Positions 2,944 through 13,819 of a DNA stretch of 64,000 nucleotides are shown in pieces (the first letter of the stretch is position 1; the number at the start of each line of letters is the position of its first letter). Below the pieces are notes generated by a model. The model did no database searches, was not told where the DNA came from, and was given only the letters and a program-made list of their open reading frames with translations. The stretch is from the IMG/VR virus record IMGVR_UViG_3300027921_000016, positions 1-64,000 of that record; one strand, written 5' to 3'. This stretch comes from a virus. The translations under genes were made by a program, and so were the position numbers.

Positions 2944-3549
2944 TTACTCCTGGGATGCAATTGGTTGCAGAAGCTCAGGGTCTTGACAGTTGACCATCCC
3001 AGTAGCATCAGGTCTGTGTTTACCGGTGTTCCAGTACCGGTAGTACGTACTACGGTACAGCCGCTTGAGCGTGCCCGTCCCGGTCTTGGTCTTGCCCAGG
3101 ACCTTTGGCGCCCGAATTTCCCGCACGTACAACCTGGAACCATTCTCGATGAACACCAGTATTCCTGCCCATTCCGGTACATGCTCGGGTATCTTGTACT
3201 TGGGTTCAAAGGTTCTACCTAGGTCTTTCCACCACCCCCAGCCTTCGGCCTTGTGCTCTTGCTTCTCCAGTAGGTGCTCGGGTACCGCGTAGTAGAATCG
3301 GCTCACGAACTTCCAATTCAGGCTAGTCCACTTGCCCTTCTTGGCGTCGATCTTCCAGTCCCCGTGTGTGAGCTTGACCTCGACCTCCCACATGTAATTT
3401 GCGGGGGTCACCAGTACGAAATCGGCCTCCCAGTCATACACATGGACGTTCGGGAAGCACTGATTCTGAGCGTAGTTGAAGAACGTACCGAGCGCAGCAA
3501 CACACTTACCCTCAGAATACCTCTTGGTACTCTCGATCTTCAGCATCAC
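2944..3549 (-). CDS. PD-(D/E)XK nuclease, MmcB-like
   Basis: EADF...EVEVK...DW..D..K and RFYYAVP motifs. Confidence 0.7.
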   Translation of the reverse strand: MMLKIESTKRYSEGKCVAALGTFFNYAQNQCFPNVHVYDWEADFVLVTPANYMWEVEVKLTHGDWKIDAKKGKWTSLNWKFVSRFYYAVPEHLLEKQEHKAEGWGWWKDLGRTFEPKYKIPEHVPEWAGILVFIENGSRLYVREIRAPKVLGKTKTGTGTLKRLYRSTYYRYWNTGKHRPDATGMVNCQDPELLQPIASQE

Positions 3550-4181
3550 TTTACCTCTCGAATCACCTCAAACGCCTCAGCGTACTCAGACCCAGCCTCA
3601 GCCCCGTACACCCTAGAATTAGCATAGATTGACATCGGAGACCGTGGACCTTTTTTCATAAACTCCCAGGTGTACGCCCGGTACGCCCTCACCTTTACTT
3701 CCATACCCTCTTCAGAAGCGGGCCAAAAACTTGCAGGCTTGAACTCCCCGTACAGCCCACCAAAATTAGACCCCAGAGATACAAACTCCAACAGCGTGCA
3801 AGTGGTCTTAGTTGATCTTGTGGCTACCCTCACGGCCTCACACACTATGCGGTGATCCCTATTCAAGTCCTTTCCTGAGTGCGTGATCACCAGGCTGGGA
3901 ATGCACTCCGAGACCGCGTTTTCTACCTGCCATACCAAATCGGTGAACGGTATCCCGTCCAGACCCTGATCTGGATAACCCAGATATAGCAGGCGCTGGT
4001 ACCCAAGGACCCCCTGAGCGGCCTCCGCATGCACCCTACACACCCCTGGCTGCCCATGACGAATACTGTTCTCACAGAACATGAGTACCGTCACCTCATG
4101 CTCCTTGGCCAACCGGTGAATGGTGGCCCCCACTCCTAGTACCTCGTCATCCGGGTGTGCAACAACCACAAGTACATTCAT
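3546..4181 (-). CDS. PIG-L/LmbE family N-deacetylase
   Basis: VVAHPDDE; THS..DLNRDH; YAEAF C-terminus. Confidence 0.9.
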   Translation of the reverse strand: MNVLVVVAHPDDEVLGVGATIHRLAKEHEVTVLMFCENSIRHGQPGVCRVHAEAAQGVLGYQRLLYLGYPDQGLDGIPFTDLVWQVENAVSECIPSLVITHSGKDLNRDHRIVCEAVRVATRSTKTTCTLLEFVSLGSNFGGLYGEFKPASFWPASEEGMEVKVRAYRAYTWEFMKKGPRSPMSIYANSRVYGAEAGSEYAEAFEVIREVK

Positions 4182-5296
4182 CTTGCCTCCGGGGTCTTGT
4201 AGCAGTCATCCAGCAGCGCGTCTACATTATAGACATATCTCTGCAACCAGAGATCATCAACGATACCACATACAGGGCTGTACCCTACCGCCCCCTGTAG
4301 CACTTGACGAATGCCTCCGATGTCCCCAGCAGAACACAAGGCCTCCAGTGAGTTGACGGCAGACAGTACAGTCTTCCACGCAGGTATCGGTTCGTTCGCC
4401 ACCATTATCTCCGGGTGGGCAGTAGACCTCAAGCCATCCCCCAGGGTAAGTTCCTCATGTAGTTTCTCTCCGGGGCGAAGGCCAACAAACACTACTTCAG
4501 AATCCCTCCCCAGGTCCTCGATCATCCTGGTGGCGATGTCCACTATCTTTACAGCCTCCCCCATGCTAAGCACGTACACCCCACAAGGCATTACATGTGC
4601 TTGTAGGATCAACACAACCGCCTGAGAGACAGTCATGAAGTACCGATCCACCTGAGCGTGTGTGACCGTTACCGGTAGACCCGCCTCTATCTGCTCATAG
4701 AATAATGGGATTACCGAGCCGCTACTGCCTAGCACATTACCGAACCGTACCACCCTAACCCTGCCCTTCAACTTCAGATTACCCAAGGCCAGTTGTTCTA
4801 CCAAGGCTTTACTTGCCCCCATCAAGTTAGTCGGTCTGACGGCCTTATCGGTACTGATCACCGTGATAGCCTCCACCACAGGGGACGCGGCACACACGTC
4901 CAGCAAGTTCGAGGCAGCAAACACGTTGTTGCGTATGGCCGATACAGGGTTACGCTCCACCATCGGCACGTGCTTGTACGCCCCCACATGAAACACTTGG
5001 GACACCCCGTACACGTCTACCAACGAGGACACCAAGGAAGTGTCTCCGTAGCTGCCAAGCACCGGCACTGCAATTGATTGCAGCTTGCGATGCACCTCAT
5101 ACAGACGGTACTCATTATTGTCCAACAACACCAACTTCTTCACGCCGACACTGCCAAGCCGTGCACACAGGGCAGAACCAATTGAACCCCCAGCGCCCGT
5201 CACAAGCACGGACTTACCCCGCAACCCAGACACGTCAATAACCTCCTCGGTCGGGGTTTTACCCAGGAACTCCATCAACTTCTGTTCATTGAACAT
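4178..5296 (-). CDS. Nucleotide-sugar 4,6-dehydratase, PglF/CapD/WbpM type, soluble catalytic domain only
   Basis: TGAGGSIG, AYKHVP, STDKAV, MGASK (MxxxK), RFGNVLGSSGSV, GLRPGEKLHEEL. Confidence 0.92.
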   Translation of the reverse strand: MFNEQKLMEFLGKTPTEEVIDVSGLRGKSVLVTGAGGSIGSALCARLGSVGVKKLVLLDNNEYRLYEVHRKLQSIAVPVLGSYGDTSLVSSLVDVYGVSQVFHVGAYKHVPMVERNPVSAIRNNVFAASNLLDVCAASPVVEAITVISTDKAVRPTNLMGASKALVEQLALGNLKLKGRVRVVRFGNVLGSSGSVIPLFYEQIEAGLPVTVTHAQVDRYFMTVSQAVVLILQAHVMPCGVYVLSMGEAVKIVDIATRMIEDLGRDSEVVFVGLRPGEKLHEELTLGDGLRSTAHPEIMVANEPIPAWKTVLSAVNSLEALCSAGDIGGIRQVLQGAVGYSPVCGIVDDLWLQRYVYNVDALLDDCYKTPEAR

Positions 5297-6399: not shown

Positions 6400-6971
6400 T
6401 TTGACACCTCGTACATCACCCAGGAACTAAAGAACGGCACATTACGATATTCCCCACAGGCAGTGGTGGACCGGACAGTGAATCCAGCGCCTTTTAGCAA
6501 CCTACGAAACCCCCTGTCCGACCAGATATGGAGCAGGGTAGGATCATCCTTGTACCCTTTCACTTCATTCCAAGGCTTACGCGCCAACCAACTCAGCCTG
6601 CGGGGAATGACGAAGAACGCCTTGCCACTTGGGGTCAGGCGACTATGTAACCCCGTAAGGGTAGCCTCTGGGTTGAGTACATGCCCTAGCACATTCACAC
6701 ACAGAATGACATCAAACTGCAACTGAGGTACTCGGGTAGCCCATACAACTTTGGGGCATTCCCGCATACCGTACTGCCTCAGCTCCGTACTGGGTTCAAA
6801 AGCGGTAACATGGTTGCAGGCCGACAGTGGGCACGCCAATCCCCCTACGCCAGCCCCAAAATCGAGTATCAACTTGGGTATGTGGGTAGAGAGACGCCCT
6901 ACCAACCACTGACGTAGCCATAGGTAGTGCAGGGTGCGGTTATATTGGATAAGCCTCTGGCTGTAGCTCAT
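6396..6971 (-). CDS. Class I SAM-dependent methyltransferase
   Basis: ILDFGAGVG motif I; FDVILC.NVLGHV; L.P.G. Confidence 0.85.
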   Translation of the reverse strand: MSYSQRLIQYNRTLHYLWLRQWLVGRLSTHIPKLILDFGAGVGGLACPLSACNHVTAFEPSTELRQYGMRECPKVVWATRVPQLQFDVILCVNVLGHVLNPEATLTGLHSRLTPSGKAFFVIPRRLSWLARKPWNEVKGYKDDPTLLHIWSDRGFRRLLKGAGFTVRSTTACGEYRNVPFFSSWVMYEVSK

Positions 6972-8461
6972 TTCACTCTCCTCATGTGCCCGGCCTTCAC
7001 ACTGGCGTCCTCCCACCCATGGAAAGCCATCAGGGCCATACGAAACTCGTTCCACGGGGTGGCCCACACAATACCTTTCGAGTCCCGAGTGTCTTCCAAC
7101 TTGGAAGACAGGCCCCTGAACACCCCCTGTTCAGCCAGCTCCCCTAGCACATCGTGCAAAACCATTTCAGAGCGGGACTCCGTGGCCTTGCACACGGCCT
7201 GAACCACATCGTTATCTGCCTTTCCTGGGAACTCCTGAATGTACTGCGGGAGCGTCTTGGTCTTGAATTCCTGTAGACGGGCATAGAACAGCTCGTACAT
7301 CGTATGCTCGTACTGCCCTCCATGATCAAACATGGCCTTGAATGCCCCTTGCTGCCAATCCAGGAACCTTGCATACATCCCTGGGTAATCATCGTGGAAC
7401 ATCTTGATCATAGCGTAGGCTTCCGTCTCGTTGTGGACAAAGAACGGATAGTCCTCTCCAAACAAGGACTCAAGCCATGTAGCCCTTTTCATTACCGATG
7501 GCACTCCCAAGAGCAAGGGCTCCACCTGGGACATGCCAAACCCACCTTCGGTAGTCATGGTTATCACCAAGTCCATCTCCTCCCTCAGTAGCCTCCAGAA
7601 CTCCTCTCGCGGAGGGTGCAGCACCTGACAGAACTCCGGAGGGGCCATCTTGATGCCCGTAGACACGGTAGAGAACACCACCTTGAATCCAAGGTCCCCT
7701 TTCAGTATCCAGTGCTTCTCCATCACCGAGTAGATGGTCTCCAGGTTAGTAGTACTCAGGCCCATACGCTCGGTGAACCCCAAACAGAATGGCCGCTGCC
7801 CTCTCACAAATCGCCTATCTTCGGCTTTACTGTGGAACCCAAAGGCCTTCACATCAACGGGTGTGTACAGCCTGATCTTGTCCCGTAACTCCTTCACGAT
7901 AGCAGGGGACATGAACCTCTTGGCGGCCTCCATCACCCCGGTCTTCTCATGCTTGATGGTAATCAACACATCATCGGCTGCCACGTACCCACACAAGGTG
8001 GCCAGGTCCTGCACCCGTCTGTCCGATACCGCTACGGTCTTCTTGAAGGACATTACTGGCATCTCCTCCCAGAGAAGCACCTTCTTCAAGAACGCCTGAT
8101 TGTAATTCCGGGGGCTGGTCATCACCAGTTTCATATTCTGAATCTGCTGGGTACGCATGGTAATCACCACGTCCGTATCCCAATACGGGCCGTTGAATGC
8201 CAACAAGGTCTCCAACTCCTTGGGGAACACCTGGTACTCCCGCATCCGGTCGTGGCTATACGGGTACTTCAGATACTCGATGTTCGGGTGCTCGGGGAAC
8301 CATTCGTACTCTTCCGCCTCCATCTCCCAGTCCGGGATCAGCCACCGGAAGAACACATCGTCCGTCTGGGATAGCACGTACTCAACAAGCCTCCGGGCCT
8401 TGAGTGCGGAAGCACAGTGGCTCGGCTTGGTACTGTAGATGGGGTCTATGACTACTTTCAT
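6968..8461 (-). CDS. Divergent GT-B fold glycosyltransferase (putative)
   Basis: DLVITMTTEGGFGMSQVEPLLLGVP resembles the GT4 EGFG..xEA..GxP donor-binding motif; sits in a sugar operon. Confidence 0.6.
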   Translation of the reverse strand: MKVVIDPIYSTKPSHCASALKARRLVEYVLSQTDDVFFRWLIPDWEMEAEEYEWFPEHPNIEYLKYPYSHDRMREYQVFPKELETLLAFNGPYWDTDVVITMRTQQIQNMKLVMTSPRNYNQAFLKKVLLWEEMPVMSFKKTVAVSDRRVQDLATLCGYVAADDVLITIKHEKTGVMEAAKRFMSPAIVKELRDKIRLYTPVDVKAFGFHSKAEDRRFVRGQRPFCLGFTERMGLSTTNLETIYSVMEKHWILKGDLGFKVVFSTVSTGIKMAPPEFCQVLHPPREEFWRLLREEMDLVITMTTEGGFGMSQVEPLLLGVPSVMKRATWLESLFGEDYPFFVHNETEAYAMIKMFHDDYPGMYARFLDWQQGAFKAMFDHGGQYEHTMYELFYARLQEFKTKTLPQYIQEFPGKADNDVVQAVCKATESRSEMVLHDVLGELAEQGVFRGLSSKLEDTRDSKGIVWATPWNEFRMALMAFHGWEDASVKAGHMRRVK

Positions 8462-8500: not shown

Positions 8501-9151
8501 TCAAACAAGACCCCAGGTAGCGCACTGCTTGACTATCACCAACGGGTCTGACTCCTGTGCAATCAATTGCAGAACAGAGTTGCCTCCACACCCATTGTGG
8601 ACGGTCTGAAACTTCACGGGATATCCAAACAGCCCCACATCCATGTAGTTTCTGCCTCCGGCCCCACTGTAGTACACACAGGCCCCTAACCGTGCTGAGG
8701 ATATAGCACAACGTAGCCTGCTAGTAGTATCCTCTCCAACGTACTCCTCCACTGGGCGCACATCCAAAGACAAACCCAGACCCTCTCCGACCTTCAAAAT
8801 CAACTCCATGTTCATAGGCGAGAGACGTGAAAACTCCATGGTCTCGTACTTCAGGAGCACATCCCTGACGGGCTCCAGCCGCGCACGGTACTTATTGGCC
8901 TTGCTCATCAACTCCTGCTCTATGGTCTTACGGGCCTTTGTGATCGAAGGCCCCCGCACAACAGCATCTAAGTAGGTCTTCCCATGGACATCTAAGCTGA
9001 TCCATCTACCCTTTATCCGGACACGGTAGTGCATACCCCCGCTCTCCAGAGCCACCATATCCAACGGTAAGTACACGTCGGTACTAGCCAACTTATTCCA
9101 GAACCCTGCCCAGGGAAGGAAATCAGGCTGGTGCACTGCTACTCGTAGCAT
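8501..9151 (-). CDS. WbqC-like protein
   Basis: HQPDFLPWAGFWNKL N-terminus; YYSGAGGRNYMD. Confidence 0.85.
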   Translation of the reverse strand: MLRVAVHQPDFLPWAGFWNKLASTDVYLPLDMVALESGGMHYRVRIKGRWISLDVHGKTYLDAVVRGPSITKARKTIEQELMSKANKYRARLEPVRDVLLKYETMEFSRLSPMNMELILKVGEGLGLSLDVRPVEEYVGEDTTSRLRCAISSARLGACVYYSGAGGRNYMDVGLFGYPVKFQTVHNGCGGNSVLQLIAQESDPLVIVKQCATWGLV

Positions 9152-9434
9152 TTGGTTCTCCTTGTTGAGCCTTCAGAGCCTTGTCGTTGAATGCCGCTAC
9201 AACCTCTGGGGGGATTTCTCCAAGATCAACATCGTTGGATACCCACACCTCTCTACGCATGGTCAGACCATACACCACCCCTGCTAGGGCGTCCGACACA
9301 TCCTTACTGTTATGTACGAACGGACCTAGTGCTACCTTAAAGTTTTCTGGGCCTCGCACCGTCACGTCGTACACCGGAACAGGGGCGTCTACTCTTACTT
9401 TACGTACTGATTTTATCCGCATTTTCGGCCTCAT
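9123..9434 (-). CDS. Split-intein C-half (9309-9434) fused to the terminase large subunit C-extein
   Basis: IKSV...PVYDVTV...NF...GPFVHN|S (blocks F/G); extein SKDVSDALAG carries the nuclease DxxD. Confidence 0.92.
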   Translation of the reverse strand: MRPKMRIKSVRKVRVDAPVPVYDVTVRGPENFKVALGPFVHNSKDVSDALAGVVYGLTMRREVWVSNDVDLGEIPPEVVAAFNDKALKAQQGEPNATSSSAPA

Positions 9435-10077
9435 TCTTAGCGACTATTGCCTGCCCCTCGGTTTCAAACCAACCAATATGCCGTTTCTTGTACACAACAC
9501 GCCACCTTGCTTTTCGTTTTTGATTCTTTGCAAACGAAACGCCTACTACAGTACTTGTTCTTTCTCCCACGTTTCTTGGCGGGAGGGCCTCAACACTGCC
9601 CGGTAGGTCTTCTTTCTTGAAGTTCAATATCGCAAACTCTCCCCGCTGTGCAATCGCAGCCAAATCACGGGCTTGTGCTGCCTTCAGTACTGAATCGTAG
9701 TACCCTACCGTTTGCTTACCCAATCGAGCGGCAAACACATTTGGGCTTTCTTGCCTCACACCCCGGTATCCGCAGGCTCCAACACTCTTATCAGAGTTCC
9801 AGGTATTCTGTTTATGCGTTGCCAGGCGTAGATTCTGCCTTCGGTTATCCAACCTCACTCTATTTACATGGTCTACCTGATATTCTGGGTCTCCCATAAT
9901 CAAGCGGTGCATCTGGATGTTTATCGTTCTGTTCTTATCGGTCTTACTACTGCCCTTTCGGTGGACTGCCGTTGCTGCGTACCCATTACGTAAATACCAT
10001 TTATACGGTGCAATCAATTGCAGGTCTTCTTCATCAACCTGCACTTTATGTCCTCCGTGTATCGTTATCGTAGCCAT
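9400..10077 (-). CDS. Free-standing HNH homing endonuclease with AP2-like domains
   Basis: MHRLIM..VDHVNRVRLDNRRQNLRLATHKQN; YRGV; AAQARDLAA; GGGAGAG SD before MATITI. Confidence 0.9.
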   Translation of the reverse strand: MATITIHGGHKVQVDEEDLQLIAPYKWYLRNGYAATAVHRKGSSKTDKNRTINIQMHRLIMGDPEYQVDHVNRVRLDNRRQNLRLATHKQNTWNSDKSVGACGYRGVRQESPNVFAARLGKQTVGYYDSVLKAAQARDLAAIAQRGEFAILNFKKEDLPGSVEALPPRNVGERTSTVVGVSFAKNQKRKARWRVVYKKRHIGWFETEGQAIVAKNEAENADKIST

Positions 10078-10121
10078 TGTCTCTCCCAAAAACAATAGTC
10101 TATCCTTGTTTTGGAGGCTGG

Positions 10122-12182
10122 TCAATCCTGAACTTCGTCTCCCTCCTGTAAGTACTGAGCTTGTATGTACTTTCCGGTCTTCAACAATACCGGGTGTTCT
10201 GGCGTACACACAAGCACACCCCCGCCCCATATTTCGATCTCCACTAGGTCTTGCACGTATTTGGTTATCCTCGGGTGCTCCATAGGCAAATGCACATACT
10301 GTCGGGTATCGTTACTCCAAGACACCCCGGTATGCACTACACCCTGTTCGTAGTCTCGTACAAGTTGGGCCATGGTACGAATTTTATGGTCTGCACATTC
10401 GATCTTTGTACTCCCCAACAAGCAACCGTGGGGAGAGTGATCTATCTTCCTCTTCTTCACATCCTTCTCTAGCGAGACCAACTCCAAGGCGCACTTCCTA
10501 TGCGTAGGCATGTTGATCCGCCCATCATACAGGGCGTTCTTCACAAAATCATAAGGGTGGGTGGTGATGTCCACACTCTGCAACCCCACTACAAACCCTT
10601 GCTGACGCAGTATCTGCTGACTATCTGTAGACTGGAACTGGTCGAAGGTCACCCATTTTATGTTCATGCCCAGACCACGAAGAGCTGCTATGACCTCGCG
10701 CACCTTATACAACAGAATCTCTCCCCCTTTTGGAGGCTTTATCTCCAGCAGGGCGTCTATCCAGATGTTAGGCATTAGCCACCCATCCTTAGACTGCACA
10801 AACTTGTCCACCGTGCCAACTGCGAAACCAGCACTGTCTCCGCTCACGGCCAGGTCACAGTGCACGAATCGTGGAAGCTCAGGACGGTAAAACTTATTCT
10901 TGTAAATCTGGAGCTTGAACTCCTGGAAGTCCACCATTTCCCGTCCAAAAATAATGTCCGTAGTCCTCTGTGCATCCCTAACACTATCGCGGTTCATGAT
11001 GAACGGGTGGTGTGCCAGGGTGCTCACCCCAGCCACATCCCGTAGTGCCTTCATGATATCCGCCTCGAAGTTCACCCGGTATTCCTCTGGTATAGCCATC
11101 ACCAAGTCGCACTCGCTGTCCGCCACTACCTCCGTAGTCTCCAGTATGCGTGGGGTTCTAGCGTCGTCCCCAATGAAGATGTTGAACCACTTGCCACTAA
11201 AGCGATCAAGGGGCTTGACCTCCCACTCCCGCTTGTCATACACGTAAATGCCGGTGCTACCTGTACGAGCGACCTCCTTACGTGCCTCCTCTTCTTTCTT
11301 GTCAGTGAACTGCCCAGGGTACCTCTTGGAAGACACCAGGCAGAGCAGTCCGGGCAGTATCCCTTTCTTCATGAACCGAGACTTACGGCGCATGGCTATA
11401 GAGTCATACAGAGCAGTGGCTTGGTCATAGGTACTGTTGTCCATGTTCGCCTTACTGTTCTCTACAACTGCCATGAAGTTCATTTCGTCTATCAGACCCC
11501 CAATCACGTTCTGCCCTATCGCCCCAGTCTCCGCCCCTGAGACGGGCTTCACGATGATCCGATTAGGGAACTTCAACTCACTCACAATGTCCTTATCGAA
11601 AGGAAACTTCTCCCTGAAGTACGCACTCCTTTCGATCATTGCCCGGAACCGGTCGAAATCCACTGACTTAGCCAGTTTGGCGTTCAAACTCTGAAAGATG
11701 AACGTAATCTCGGAGCTGGGATCAAGGTCAAACAGGTAGTGAGGCGTGCGATAGCAACTCAGCTTGTACAATTGGTAAGCCGTACTGTACAGAGCAAGGG
11801 TGGACTTCCCGGTACCAATTGCACCCGTGAGCACGGCCTCCTGATACAGGCCGTTATTCATCTCTATCAGGCACTCCATCACCTTTGGGAACAGGATGTT
11901 CTTACTGTCCATGAAGTACGGGTCCTCCACGAACGTCTGGATGCTTACAGGGTCGTACTTCAAGCTACTGAAGCCCCGTACTGCCGACCCTCTTACTAGG
12001 CCCTCGCCTTTACGCACTTTCTCCAAATCGGTTACCACAGCCTTGAGGAACCGTACCTGCAAGCTAGGGTCAGGGAGCTTCATGCCCTCCTCCAGTACTC
12101 TAGCCCCTCTATCAGGACCGAGCGCCTGTATCAGGTAGTTTCTGGCGTGCTCAATCACCTGTTGCATCTTGCACGCTCTCAA
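10122..12182 (-). CDS. terL: Terminase large subunit N-part ending in a 100-aa split-intein N-half (10125-10424)
   Basis: Walker A GAIGTGKS, Walker B LIDEMNF, nuclease HCDLA and TFDQFQS; KIDHSPHG|CLLGST..., block B CTPEHP, L..GD then stop. Confidence 0.92.
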   Translation of the reverse strand: MRACKMQQVIEHARNYLIQALGPDRGARVLEEGMKLPDPSLQVRFLKAVVTDLEKVRKGEGLVRGSAVRGFSSLKYDPVSIQTFVEDPYFMDSKNILFPKVMECLIEMNNGLYQEAVLTGAIGTGKSTLALYSTAYQLYKLSCYRTPHYLFDLDPSSEITFIFQSLNAKLAKSVDFDRFRAMIERSAYFREKFPFDKDIVSELKFPNRIIVKPVSGAETGAIGQNVIGGLIDEMNFMAVVENSKANMDNSTYDQATALYDSIAMRRKSRFMKKGILPGLLCLVSSKRYPGQFTDKKEEEARKEVARTGSTGIYVYDKREWEVKPLDRFSGKWFNIFIGDDARTPRILETTEVVADSECDLVMAIPEEYRVNFEADIMKALRDVAGVSTLAHHPFIMNRDSVRDAQRTTDIIFGREMVDFQEFKLQIYKNKFYRPELPRFVHCDLAVSGDSAGFAVGTVDKFVQSKDGWLMPNIWIDALLEIKPPKGGEILLYKVREVIAALRGLGMNIKWVTFDQFQSTDSQQILRQQGFVVGLQSVDITTHPYDFVKNALYDGRINMPTHRKCALELVSLEKDVKKRKIDHSPHGCLLGSTKIECADHKIRTMAQLVRDYEQGVVHTGVSWSNDTRQYVHLPMEHPRITKYVQDLVEIEIWGGGVLVCTPEHPVLLKTGKYIQAQYLQEGDEVQD

Positions 12183-12795
12183 ACACCCCGTCTATGGCGC
12201 TGAAAAATGTCGCTGCTGCTTTCTCCAGTTGCTCATTTACTTGGTAACTCACTTGTACAGCGTCCTTACCATCGGACTCGACTACCGTGGTCTTGCCATC
12301 CTGAATAATCTTGGTGGTCTTCGGTACCCTGCGTACAAACCCTAGATCGAACGACAGGTCAGCAAACTGTTGGATTAACCCCGAGAGGGTCTTCATCTCC
12401 CCCCCGAGGGACGAAATCAGAACAGGCATATCCTTTTCACGGATCATCAACTTCTGCACTCGGGCCTTCTGTGATAGGACCAGTTGCCCCACCTCCTCCA
12501 GTACGTCGATCTCCTCCTTGGTGTGCTGGAGCGGAATTATCTCCTGCCCTTTCGGAATCACCATGGCCATGTTCTTGTCCACTACATCGTACTTGTAGCG
12601 GTACAGGTACTTCTCCAGGGTGTTTTCCTTTACATCCGTCCACAGGCCGAGAGTCTGCTGAAACATCTTCATGATCGCCGGAACACCCCGACCTTCATAG
12701 AACATGGTGTGCAGTATGGCTTTCTGTTCCGGCGTAAGCTCCTGTATGCGCTTAAACGCACGACCGGGGTCTTTACGTGGCTCCTGTGACGGCAT
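12151..12795 (-). CDS. Putative terminase small subunit
   Basis: Helical protein immediately upstream of and overlapping TerL. Confidence 0.55.
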   Translation of the reverse strand: MPSQEPRKDPGRAFKRIQELTPEQKAILHTMFYEGRGVPAIMKMFQQTLGLWTDVKENTLEKYLYRYKYDVVDKNMAMVIPKGQEIIPLQHTKEEIDVLEEVGQLVLSQKARVQKLMIREKDMPVLISSLGGEMKTLSGLIQQFADLSFDLGFVRRVPKTTKIIQDGKTTVVESDGKDAVQVSYQVNEQLEKAAATFFSAIDGVFESVQDATGD

Positions 12796-12941
12796 CTTAA
12801 CCCCAAAACACAAACAGCCTGGGGGCTAAGACCGTCAGGCTTACAAGTACAACCAAACAAAGAACTGGCCCTACTGAGTGTCTACCGTGACTCTTGGGGC
12901 CAATCCGTTTAAGGGACCCCGCACACAGGACAACTAAGGTA

Positions 12942-12970
12942 ATCATACCCCCACCCCCTCAGACTGTCAA
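12942..12970 (-). promoter_or_regulatory. Canonical sigma70 promoter upstream of the terS-terL-sugar operon
   Basis: TTGACA-N17-TATGAT. Confidence 0.65.
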
Positions 12971-13819
12971 TTGCTGTTCTACGGGTAACTTACCTATGGG
13001 AGTTACTACTGGAGGTAGGGGTTTGAGGTACTCCTCCAGAGCGGAGGTACTCAAGTTGCCGGTTGCAATCAATTGCAGTAGCGAGCCCAACACCTGATCC
13101 ACAGACCTCTGCTTACTCTTGCACCAGTCACACAGTACGAGAAACTGCATTTTTTCCTTCTTGGACATGCGAATCCAGACGTGCTCCTGTCCACCGAAGT
13201 CAAACACCATGTACCCCCAGGGTAGGGTGTCTCCGTACTCGGAGAACAGCTTGTTCAGCACCAGAGCGAGGCCGTCAATGGTCTTGATCTCCTTTGTTGC
13301 TTCCTCGAAGGCGGGCAACATCTCCGGTGGTAGGGACTTACCTGTAGCCTTCACCATCTTACGGAACTCTTCCTCACTGGTGAAACCGAATAGTTCAGAA
13401 GCTACCTCTTCCGTGTACTTCTCAGACAGCGACTGGTACATGGCCATGAACTTACTGGCCGACATTTTGCCTCGGATCAGGTTATGACGGACATTCTGGA
13501 ACTTCTCCTTGTCGTCGTCGAACTCAAGATCGGTGATGATCGTTACCGGTACCTGCTCCAGACCCATGAGCTTAGCTACCTCCCAGCGATGGTGGCCACC
13601 AACAATACGATAGGAACCGTCTTTAAGCGGTCGTACAAGCACCGGATCGGTGATCCCAATGGAGCCGATGTTATCGTACAGCATATTGAATTCCTGGTCC
13701 GACATCTCATTTGGGTTGAGCGGGTTCGGTACCAGGGAATTTACTGAGAGAAACGTGCGGGACAACGATGCGGTACGTTCTTCCGCTGTAGGGGCTACCA
13801 TCTGCAACTCCTTATGCAA
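12959..13819 (-). CDS. ParB/Srx N-terminal domain protein with possible HTH
   Basis: LVPNPLNPN...GITDPVLVR...YRIVGGHHRWEVA...VPV; YTEEVASELFGFTSEEE is HTH-like. Confidence 0.85.
   Translation of the reverse strand: MHKELQMVAPTAEERTASLSRTFLSVNSLVPNPLNPNEMSDQEFNMLYDNIGSIGITDPVLVRPLKDGSYRIVGGHHRWEVAKLMGLEQVPVTIITDLEFDDDKEKFQNVRHNLIRGKMSASKFMAMYQSLSEKYTEEVASELFGFTSEEEFRKMVKATGKSLPPEMLPAFEEATKEIKTIDGLALVLNKLFSEYGDTLPWGYMVFDFGGQEHVWIRMSKKEKMQFLVLCDWCKSKQRSVDQVLGSLLQLIATGNLSTSALEEYLKPLPPVVTPIGKLPVEQQLTV

Follow-up and report, generated by a model that had tools for sequence, protein, structure and literature searches.

A phage large terminase gene broken within its nuclease motif by a putative canonically split intein and a free-standing HNH-AP2 endonuclease gene

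How might a phage obtain a complete large terminase (TerL) when the gene for it is broken in two, with an endonuclease gene lying between the pieces? This question is raised by a locus in the IMG/VR virus record IMGVR_UViG_3300027921_000016, of which positions 1-64,000 (64,000 nucleotides, nt) form the window analyzed here. All positions below are those of the window unless another sequence is named, and all three open reading frames (ORFs) of the locus lie on its minus strand (Table 1). An original prediction, made from the letters alone, had described a TerL frame that stops after the end of its N-terminal extein and a 100-amino-acid (aa) N-terminal intein half (IntN) carrying a TPEH motif, followed by a separate HNH-AP2 gene and then by an ORF joining a C-terminal intein half (IntC) to the remainder of TerL. 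The break, the IntN half, its motif and the separate gene are all present as described, and the separate gene occupies a frame of its own. We consider it highly probable that the locus is a fractured terL gene, in which an intein has been split by an inserted HNH-AP2 gene and the protein is repaired by trans-splicing.

The identity of the host protein and the exact point of interruption were established through comparison with contiguous terminases. The product of the first ORF is 52-53% identical to the annotated TerL proteins of Stenotrophomonas phages DLP3, DLP5 and Summit and ~50% identical to those of many Vibrio, Rhizobium and Rhodobacter siphophages, and every TerL match to it breaks off at residue 582-587. 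The third ORF, from residue 43 on, matches the C-terminal tails of those same terminases. By tblastn, the two exteins match immediately adjoining bases in the genomes of Rhizobium phages RHph_TM16 and RHph_Y1_11. When both are aligned with the contiguous DLP3 TerL, the break falls at KIDHPASG/SKDVSDA (a slash marks the junction here and below), and the closest IMG/VR relative, an intein-less protein at locus L002 that is 71% identical, reads KIDHPPHG/SKDVSDA. Relative to the contiguous proteins (KIDHxxxG/SKDVSDA), the intein insertion is thus in-frame and precise, with no gap or overlap between the exteins. In keeping with the original prediction, the nuclease motif would be rebuilt only once the exteins are joined, with invariant residues contributed from both sides.

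A Pfam search assigned no terminase family to the window ORF or to its intein-less relatives with the copy used, which lacked PF27249.1; all close TerL relatives among the representative proteins (P0151-P0270) carry this precomputed accession. A PDB sequence search with the intein-less TerL likewise gave no match, and fold comparison was used instead. The L002 protein was folded with AlphaFold from an alignment of 32 relatives (mean predicted local distance difference test score, pLDDT, 78.7). With this model, Foldseek returned the large terminases of D6E, HK97, T4 and Sf6 as best matches (E ~1e-11 to 1e-9), and VIA-align superposed residues 409-621 onto the nuclease domain of the G20c terminase (Z 17.1, root-mean-square deviation 2.5 Å over 178 residues). 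By the model of this close relative, TerL consists of an ATPase plus an RNase H-like nuclease fold. In L002 numbering, the junction between residues 605 and 606 follows the last strand (598-600) of the modelled nuclease domain and precedes its C-terminal helix (608-622). The residues invariant in 32 intein-less TerLs include D600 and H601 on the N-terminal side of the junction and S606, D608 and D611 on the C-terminal side. Because the junction splits invariant residues within the nuclease fold, the intein is located inside a conserved active-site motif, and the C-extein would supply the last metal-binding aspartate of the nuclease. The host genome is a 97,848-base IMG/VR record with direct terminal repeats that is rated complete, and a second TerL was not found in this complete 97.8-kb genome. 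An essential packaging enzyme would here need its nuclease site rebuilt after translation.

Both halves of the interruption carry the marks of an intein. At the insertion site, the NCBIfam model for the intein C-terminal region, TIGR01443, scores 20.7 bits (cut-off 15.6) on the third ORF, where its match covers residues 16-39 and has Ser+1 as its last position, in agreement with the intein assignment of the original prediction. A phmmer search of IntN against the PDB matched the NrdJ-1 split intein (8ubs) with E = 2e-5 over residues 2-98, and the alignment stops at the end of the NrdJ-1 IntN. As NrdJ-1 is a naturally split intein from the original fractured genes, this match places the break at the canonical site. 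The same search with IntC plus the C-extein gave chance-level matches only; a profile of eight IntC sequences matches solved inteins at their C-termini, the IntC chains of Npu DnaE among them. The first residue, Cys1, and the block B motif T-P-[DE]-H are invariant in six split loci, and PVPVYD...FVHN/S, which comprises blocks F and G and Ser+1, is invariant in eight. The IntN halves of these loci are just 31-46% identical to one another despite the invariant splicing residues, which argues for long-term selection on splicing. The net charge is -5 for IntN and +4 for IntC, with the positive charge of IntC within its first 12 residues, and an acidic IntN paired with a basic IntC is common to most split loci, a polarity that Dassa et al. 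2009 (PMC2677866) also describe in canonical split inteins. Judged by these sequence features, the element is a class-1 intein of the Cys1/Ser+1 type, canonically split.

The intervening gene encodes a protein that matches Pfam HNH_3 (E = 1.1e-8) and PHROG 99, an HNH endonuclease family (E = 8e-28). The Pfam AP2 family was reached by one of three orthologues (1.4e-6), and a profile of the window protein with two orthologues matches AP2/ERF structures at positions 101-159 (WRI1, 7.5e-13; ERF096, 4e-7; AtERF1, ~2e-6). The label HNH-AP2 is justified because this three-sequence profile matches plant AP2/ERF domain structures. The HNH residues are intact, with D68, H69, N77, N81 and N90 invariant among the three orthologues. 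GC content across the gene (9600-10200) is 0.45-0.47 versus ~0.53 in the flanks, and AT skew is strongly negative there, which is consistent with a foreign origin. The gene is single-copy in the host genome, and related HNH-AP2 genes are common in phages as free-standing genes. Halves of this intein family were found in the flanks of none of 80 sampled HNH-AP2 relatives, so the HNH-AP2 family is not generally intein-associated. The subgroup residing in TerL inteins has an extra C-terminal AP2-like segment.

Taken together, these features suggest the following account. An intein lies in the nuclease motif D-H-x4-G/S-K-D-x2-D-A of the only large terminase of the phage, and a free-standing HNH-AP2 gene would have been inserted at the usual endonuclease loop, breaking the intein coding sequence. 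Three proteins would be translated independently, namely TerL-N::IntN, the endonuclease and IntC::TerL-C, with translation of the last possibly coupled to that of the HNH gene. The acidic IntN and the basic N-terminus of IntC would associate to form the HINT fold, and class-1 trans-splicing through a Cys1 thioester, transesterification to Ser+1 and cyclization of Asn38 would yield a TerL of 647 aa whose nuclease site is complete. Mobility of the element would be driven by the endonuclease, which most likely cuts an allele without the endonuclease gene, either a mini-intein or an intein-less terL, during co-infection; both kinds of allele exist and are candidate homing targets.

Since the window comes from a metagenome-assembled virus record and contiguous inteins that contain an HNH domain in frame exist at the same site (L021 and L022), the three ORFs might be an assembly or sequencing artefact that conceals one contiguous intein, a possibility raised in the original prediction itself. 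One public run, from a biofilm sample, contains the stretch and is probably its source; two other runs had no coverage of it, and the runs listed for this DNA include none of RNA. An independent Logan contig of that run carries 9000-12300 in one piece at a depth of ~15 with zero differences, which speaks against an assembly error. In addition, the same three-ORF layout is present in eight other contigs from other samples (L003, L014, L016, L018, L020, L042, L045 and L111), whose TerL exteins are 28-60% identical to the window TerL. In all nine TerL split loci, the IntN stop lies at a homologous place, an HNH-AP2 homologue lies between the halves, and IntC is exactly 38 aa long and starts with an ATG behind a purine run resembling a Shine-Dalgarno (SD) sequence; the IntC ORF opens within the 3' end of the HNH gene or right at it. 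The HNH-AP2 gene has its own SD and ATG, and its product is unrelated to the in-frame HNH of the contiguous inteins at this site. An artefact is therefore extremely improbable, and the stops are real. The conserved starts also bear on the length of IntC, for which the original prediction had allowed 38-42 aa. The window ORF has two in-frame ATGs (9434 and 9422), and the shorter form is upheld over the 42-aa one by a GAGG 6 nt upstream of ATG 9422 and by the 38 aa of all relatives. Counted from that ATG, IntC::TerL-C is 99 aa long, and its ORF shares 23 nt with the 3' end of the HNH gene.

Repair could also take place in the RNA, with the HNH gene residing in a self-splicing intron or a bypass element within a mini-intein gene. 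Phage HNH homing endonucleases are often intron-encoded, and the IntN and IntC frames coincide in the window, as such repair would allow; in four of the nine loci (L003, L016, L042 and L045), however, the two frames differ. An Rfam scan of 8800-12500 at E up to 10 gave four chance-level matches and no intron, an absence that is not proof by itself. With just 47 nt of non-coding sequence on the 5' side and an HNH gene whose 3' end runs into IntC, an intron core would not fit, and the conservation of the IntN stop, the SD and the ATG in the split loci points to separate translation. We give RNA-level repair hardly any credence. The idea that the element is decaying, with a dead terminase in a defective phage record, could draw on the frameshifted HNH gene of L016, yet the genome is complete and has terminal repeats, each of the three ORFs is intact and has its catalytic motifs, and persistence of the layout across such diverged terminases indicates long-term purifying selection; decay is accordingly a very remote prospect. 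Somewhat less improbable, though still quite unlikely, is that the TerL pieces function without a covalent bond, either with the intein halves acting as a dimerization handle or as a terminase in pieces like the Aeh1 nrdA product, whose gene is split by an HNH gene without an intein and is still functional (cited in Dassa et al. 2009, PMC2677866). Against this, Cys1, the threonine and histidine of block B, the aspartate of block F, the terminal HN and Ser+1 are all invariant, which would be unexpected if binding alone mattered, and the break, flanked by a strand and a helix, interrupts an active-site motif that is itself invariant.

Several points weigh against a fractured gene repaired by trans-splicing. 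The intein N-terminal region model TIGR01445 scores 23.1 bits on IntN, slightly below its cut-off of 24.5, although the match spans model positions 1-82 of 83. Trans-splicing is deduced from sequence. The third catalytic aspartate, taken to be that at C-extein position +3, was assigned to the C-extein by invariance and linear correspondence with G20c, not by residue-level superposition. The sole run with this DNA is probably its source, so that it checks the assembly and not the biology, and the frameshift in L016 means that the endonuclease need not be active everywhere. The HNH-AP2 gene of that contig (L016:3820-4523) is spread over two frames (3820-4314 and 4290-4523), owing either to decay or to a sequencing error, and both halves of the split intein are intact. 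A chance origin of the intein signals is nevertheless excluded by a TIGR01443 score above cut-off, the NrdJ-1 match at 2e-5 and the recurrence of the layout in eight other diverged contigs, and a terL broken by an HNH-AP2 gene and repaired by trans-splicing remains our strongly preferred explanation.

Table 1. Features of the fractured terL locus in window positions, listed in the direction of the terL gene.
Feature	Position	Strand	Details
TerL-N::IntN ORF	12182..10122	minus	686 aa; start = TTG 12182 or ATG 12167
terL N-extein	10425..12182	minus	586 aa; covers the ATPase domain and the greater part of the nuclease domain; C-terminal end KIDHSPHG
Cys1 codon of IntN	10424-10422	minus	residue 587 of the 686-aa product
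IntN	10125..10424	minus	exactly 100 aa; Cys1; block B TPEH at IntN residues 74-77
TGA stop closing TerL-N::IntN (canonical split site)	10122..10124	minus	read directly from the sequence
Spacer	10075..10121	minus	47 nt; contains GGGAGAG, the SD of the HNH gene
HNH-AP2 homing-endonuclease gene, free-standing	9400..10074	minus	224 aa plus stop (9402-9400); ATG 10074; frame differs from terL
IntC	9309..9422	minus	38 aa, MRIKSV...GPFVHN; blocks F (PVPVYD) and G (FVHN)
terL C-extein	9123..9308	minus	61 aa plus stop (9125-9123); begins SKDVSDALAG; Ser+1 codon 9308-9306

The surroundings of the locus were also inspected. A sigma-70-like site, TTGACC-17-TAGACT (10125-10097), overlaps the IntN stop; it is weak and does not score above shuffled sequence. 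The stop codon of IntN is thus embedded in a -35-like TTGAC(C/A); L014 has TTGACA-18-TATTAT at this place, and L111 also has TTGACC. The endonuclease gene may have its promoter here, although the window match is at chance level. On the 3' side of terL-C, with overlapping ends, lies a WbqC-like gene (8501-9151), and further on a glycosyltransferase-like gene (6968-8461). Upstream of terL (12151-13819), a 220-aa ORF without a family match occupies the place where a small terminase would be expected, next to a ParB-like nuclease gene (12959-13819); the same gene order of ParB, unknown ORF and terL is also found in phage DLP3. A megablast search of 9000-12300 against GenBank phages gave no match. 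Outside the window, at ~78866-81931 of the host genome, a family-A DNA polymerase in a 1620-aa frame contains at least two contiguous inteins (...IVTHN/T and ...VVVHN/T), one of them with an in-frame HNH-like segment.

In order to place the locus among its relatives, metagenome contigs were scanned with the IntC/junction motif, which yielded 215 confirmed stretches. Both intein ends were readable in 81 loci, and it is these to which the following counts refer: 54 carry a contiguous full-length intein, 17 a contiguous mini-intein and 10 a split intein (nine in TerL, plus L108). A maximum-likelihood tree built from the splicing domains separates the ten split inteins, whose own branches are long, from the others at a branch supported at 100/97. 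After addition of contiguous inteins found in the representative-protein search (FastTree), the mini-inteins P0147, P0091, P0063 and P0104 nested in the split group with a support of 0.87, and three of the four (P0147, P0091 and P0104) keep a methionine at the position where IntC starts. These findings point either to re-fusion once the endonuclease gene had been lost or to mini-intein alleles serving as targets of the endonuclease. A HMMER search of 1.84 billion representatives with a profile of the junction plus IntN gave ~64 same-site TerL matches among its best 150, and ~19 of these terminate no more than a few residues from where IntN ends. When the third ORF served as query, ~20 additional clusters (at 90% identity) of a 38-aa IntC with a TerL tail were found, unnamed or annotated as "hypothetical protein". 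A contiguous intein is present in several TerL relatives 937-961 aa long, including one that has a LAGLIDADG domain (PF14528).

Relatives of these elements were also seen in other arrangements. At L108:1-3770 (contig Ga0182741_1010127), an intein of the split group resides in a GyrB/topoisomerase-like gene (...EGDSAGGGVRR/C...IVHN/CRDRRTQAV) with Cys+1; its halves are ~1.5 kb apart, and there is no plus-strand ORF of at least 70 aa between them. Three representative proteins (P0061, P0076 and P0114) end in a related IntN after an EGxSAGG motif. The TerL encoded at L014:2027-5536 (IMG/VR 3300037067_013705) has two inteins, the second being the nuclease-site split intein with HNH-AP2 and the first a contiguous one at Walker B (VFGG/C...ASN/CIDEMNF) that holds a 328-aa ORF in another frame (2967-3953). 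A cultured example of a split TerL intein seems to be present in Streptococcus phage vB_SagM-GXN1 (PQ819873.1, ~122.5-125.5 kb; L037:1375-4348), a sparsely annotated 176-kb phage whose terL is apparently in pieces and unannotated. Here, an 872-aa ORF contains an intein C-terminal end (...VVSHN/CALMDEIEF) and has a tail resembling a PD-(D/E)xK/Vsr-like nuclease, and a separate 124-aa ORF that follows opens with an IntC (...LVVHN/SKDISDSLAG).

A bolder scenario can be drawn from these observations, although we regard it as rather unlikely in its entirety. In it, the TerL inteins with a canonical split would form a single old lineage that is linked to one HNH-AP2 subfamily, toggles between split and re-fused mini-intein forms and has jumped to a GyrB-like gene; trans-splicing together with translational coupling would act as a timing checkpoint that withholds the terminase nuclease until late infection, and the intein would be a new, orthogonal and fast Cys1/Ser+1 split intein.

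Split inteins from fractured phage genes (gp41-1, NrdJ-1 and IMPDH-1) have become the fastest and most orthogonal tools for protein ligation. The locus and its relatives represent a diverse, unnamed family of putative canonical Cys1/Ser+1 split inteins with the native extein context G/SKD, made up of nine full TerL loci and another twenty or so gene clusters. This single site displays all stages of the intein and homing-endonuclease cycle, namely empty, full, mini and split alleles, an apparently decayed endonuclease gene and a switch of host gene, which makes it well suited to tests of the gene-breaking model of Dassa et al.

Fractured genes were defined by Dassa et al. 2009 (PMC2677866), in whose cases the intervening endonucleases were of the GIY-YIG or Vsr-like type, HNH cases were anticipated, and the single terminase locus was atypically split. 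According to a 2025 review, gp41-1, gp41-8, NrdJ-1 and IMPDH-1 are Cys1/Ser+1 canonical splits with an IntN of 88-110 aa and an IntC of 37-50 aa, while the TerL split inteins consist of AceL-TerL, GOS-TerL and Cat-TerL alone, all of them atypical, with an IntN of 25-37 aa and Cys+1. This agrees with the background given in the original prediction, that the known TerL split inteins are atypical and that the intervening enzymes were GIY-YIG or Vsr-like. The locus shares with gp41-1, gp41-8, NrdJ-1 and IMPDH-1 the one-strand layout of three ORFs, the split at the endonuclease-insertion loop, Cys1/Ser+1, halves of close to 100 aa (IntN) and 40 aa (IntC) and the acidic/basic polarity of these halves, and NrdJ-1 is the nearest solved relative of its IntN. 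It differs from them in its host protein and site, the TerL nuclease motif, and in the HNH-AP2 nature of the intervening gene. AceL-TerL, GOS-TerL, Cat-TerL and the terminase locus of Dassa et al. are likewise naturally split, metagenomic and located in phage large terminase genes; those, however, are split after block A, with an IntN of 25-37 aa, an IntC of 104-122 aa and Cys+1. Membership in this atypical group is ruled out for the window intein by its 100-aa IntN, 38-aa IntC and Ser+1.

The contiguous TerL inteins, of which there are hundreds of metagenomic examples, share the insertion point (DH...G/C...HN/SKD) and the block F and G motifs, but each is one polypeptide, either with an in-frame HNH or other nuclease or as a mini-intein, and the split forms occupy a separate branch of the tree. 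The HNH-AP2 endonucleases of Bacillus phages Slash and Staley have the same HNH_3 plus AP2 architecture at 30-39% identity. For the PolB gene of Pseudomonas jumbo phage MIJ3, an HNH gene within a split intein has been reported (PMC6892783). There too, an essential phage gene has a free-standing gene of the HNH family between its IntN and IntC; that case concerns a different host gene in a single genome rather than a family survey, and the text consulted reports no AP2 domain. A literature search of limited reach found neither a canonically split TerL intein nor an HNH-AP2 partner, which does not prove their absence. The novelty suggested by the original prediction is therefore preserved for the canonical TerL split and is lost for Ser+1, which gp41-1, gp41-8, NrdJ-1 and IMPDH-1 have, and for the HNH partner, which has a precedent in MIJ3 PolB. 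It is narrower than first proposed because canonical Cys1/Ser+1 splits are usual, an HNH precedent exists and the family is widespread. The locus belongs to a sizeable undescribed family of a known kind of selfish element that is common in phage metagenomes, and is not a new kind of system; what is new here is the canonical split site in TerL, its strict pairing with one HNH-AP2 subfamily and the evolutionary picture at this site.

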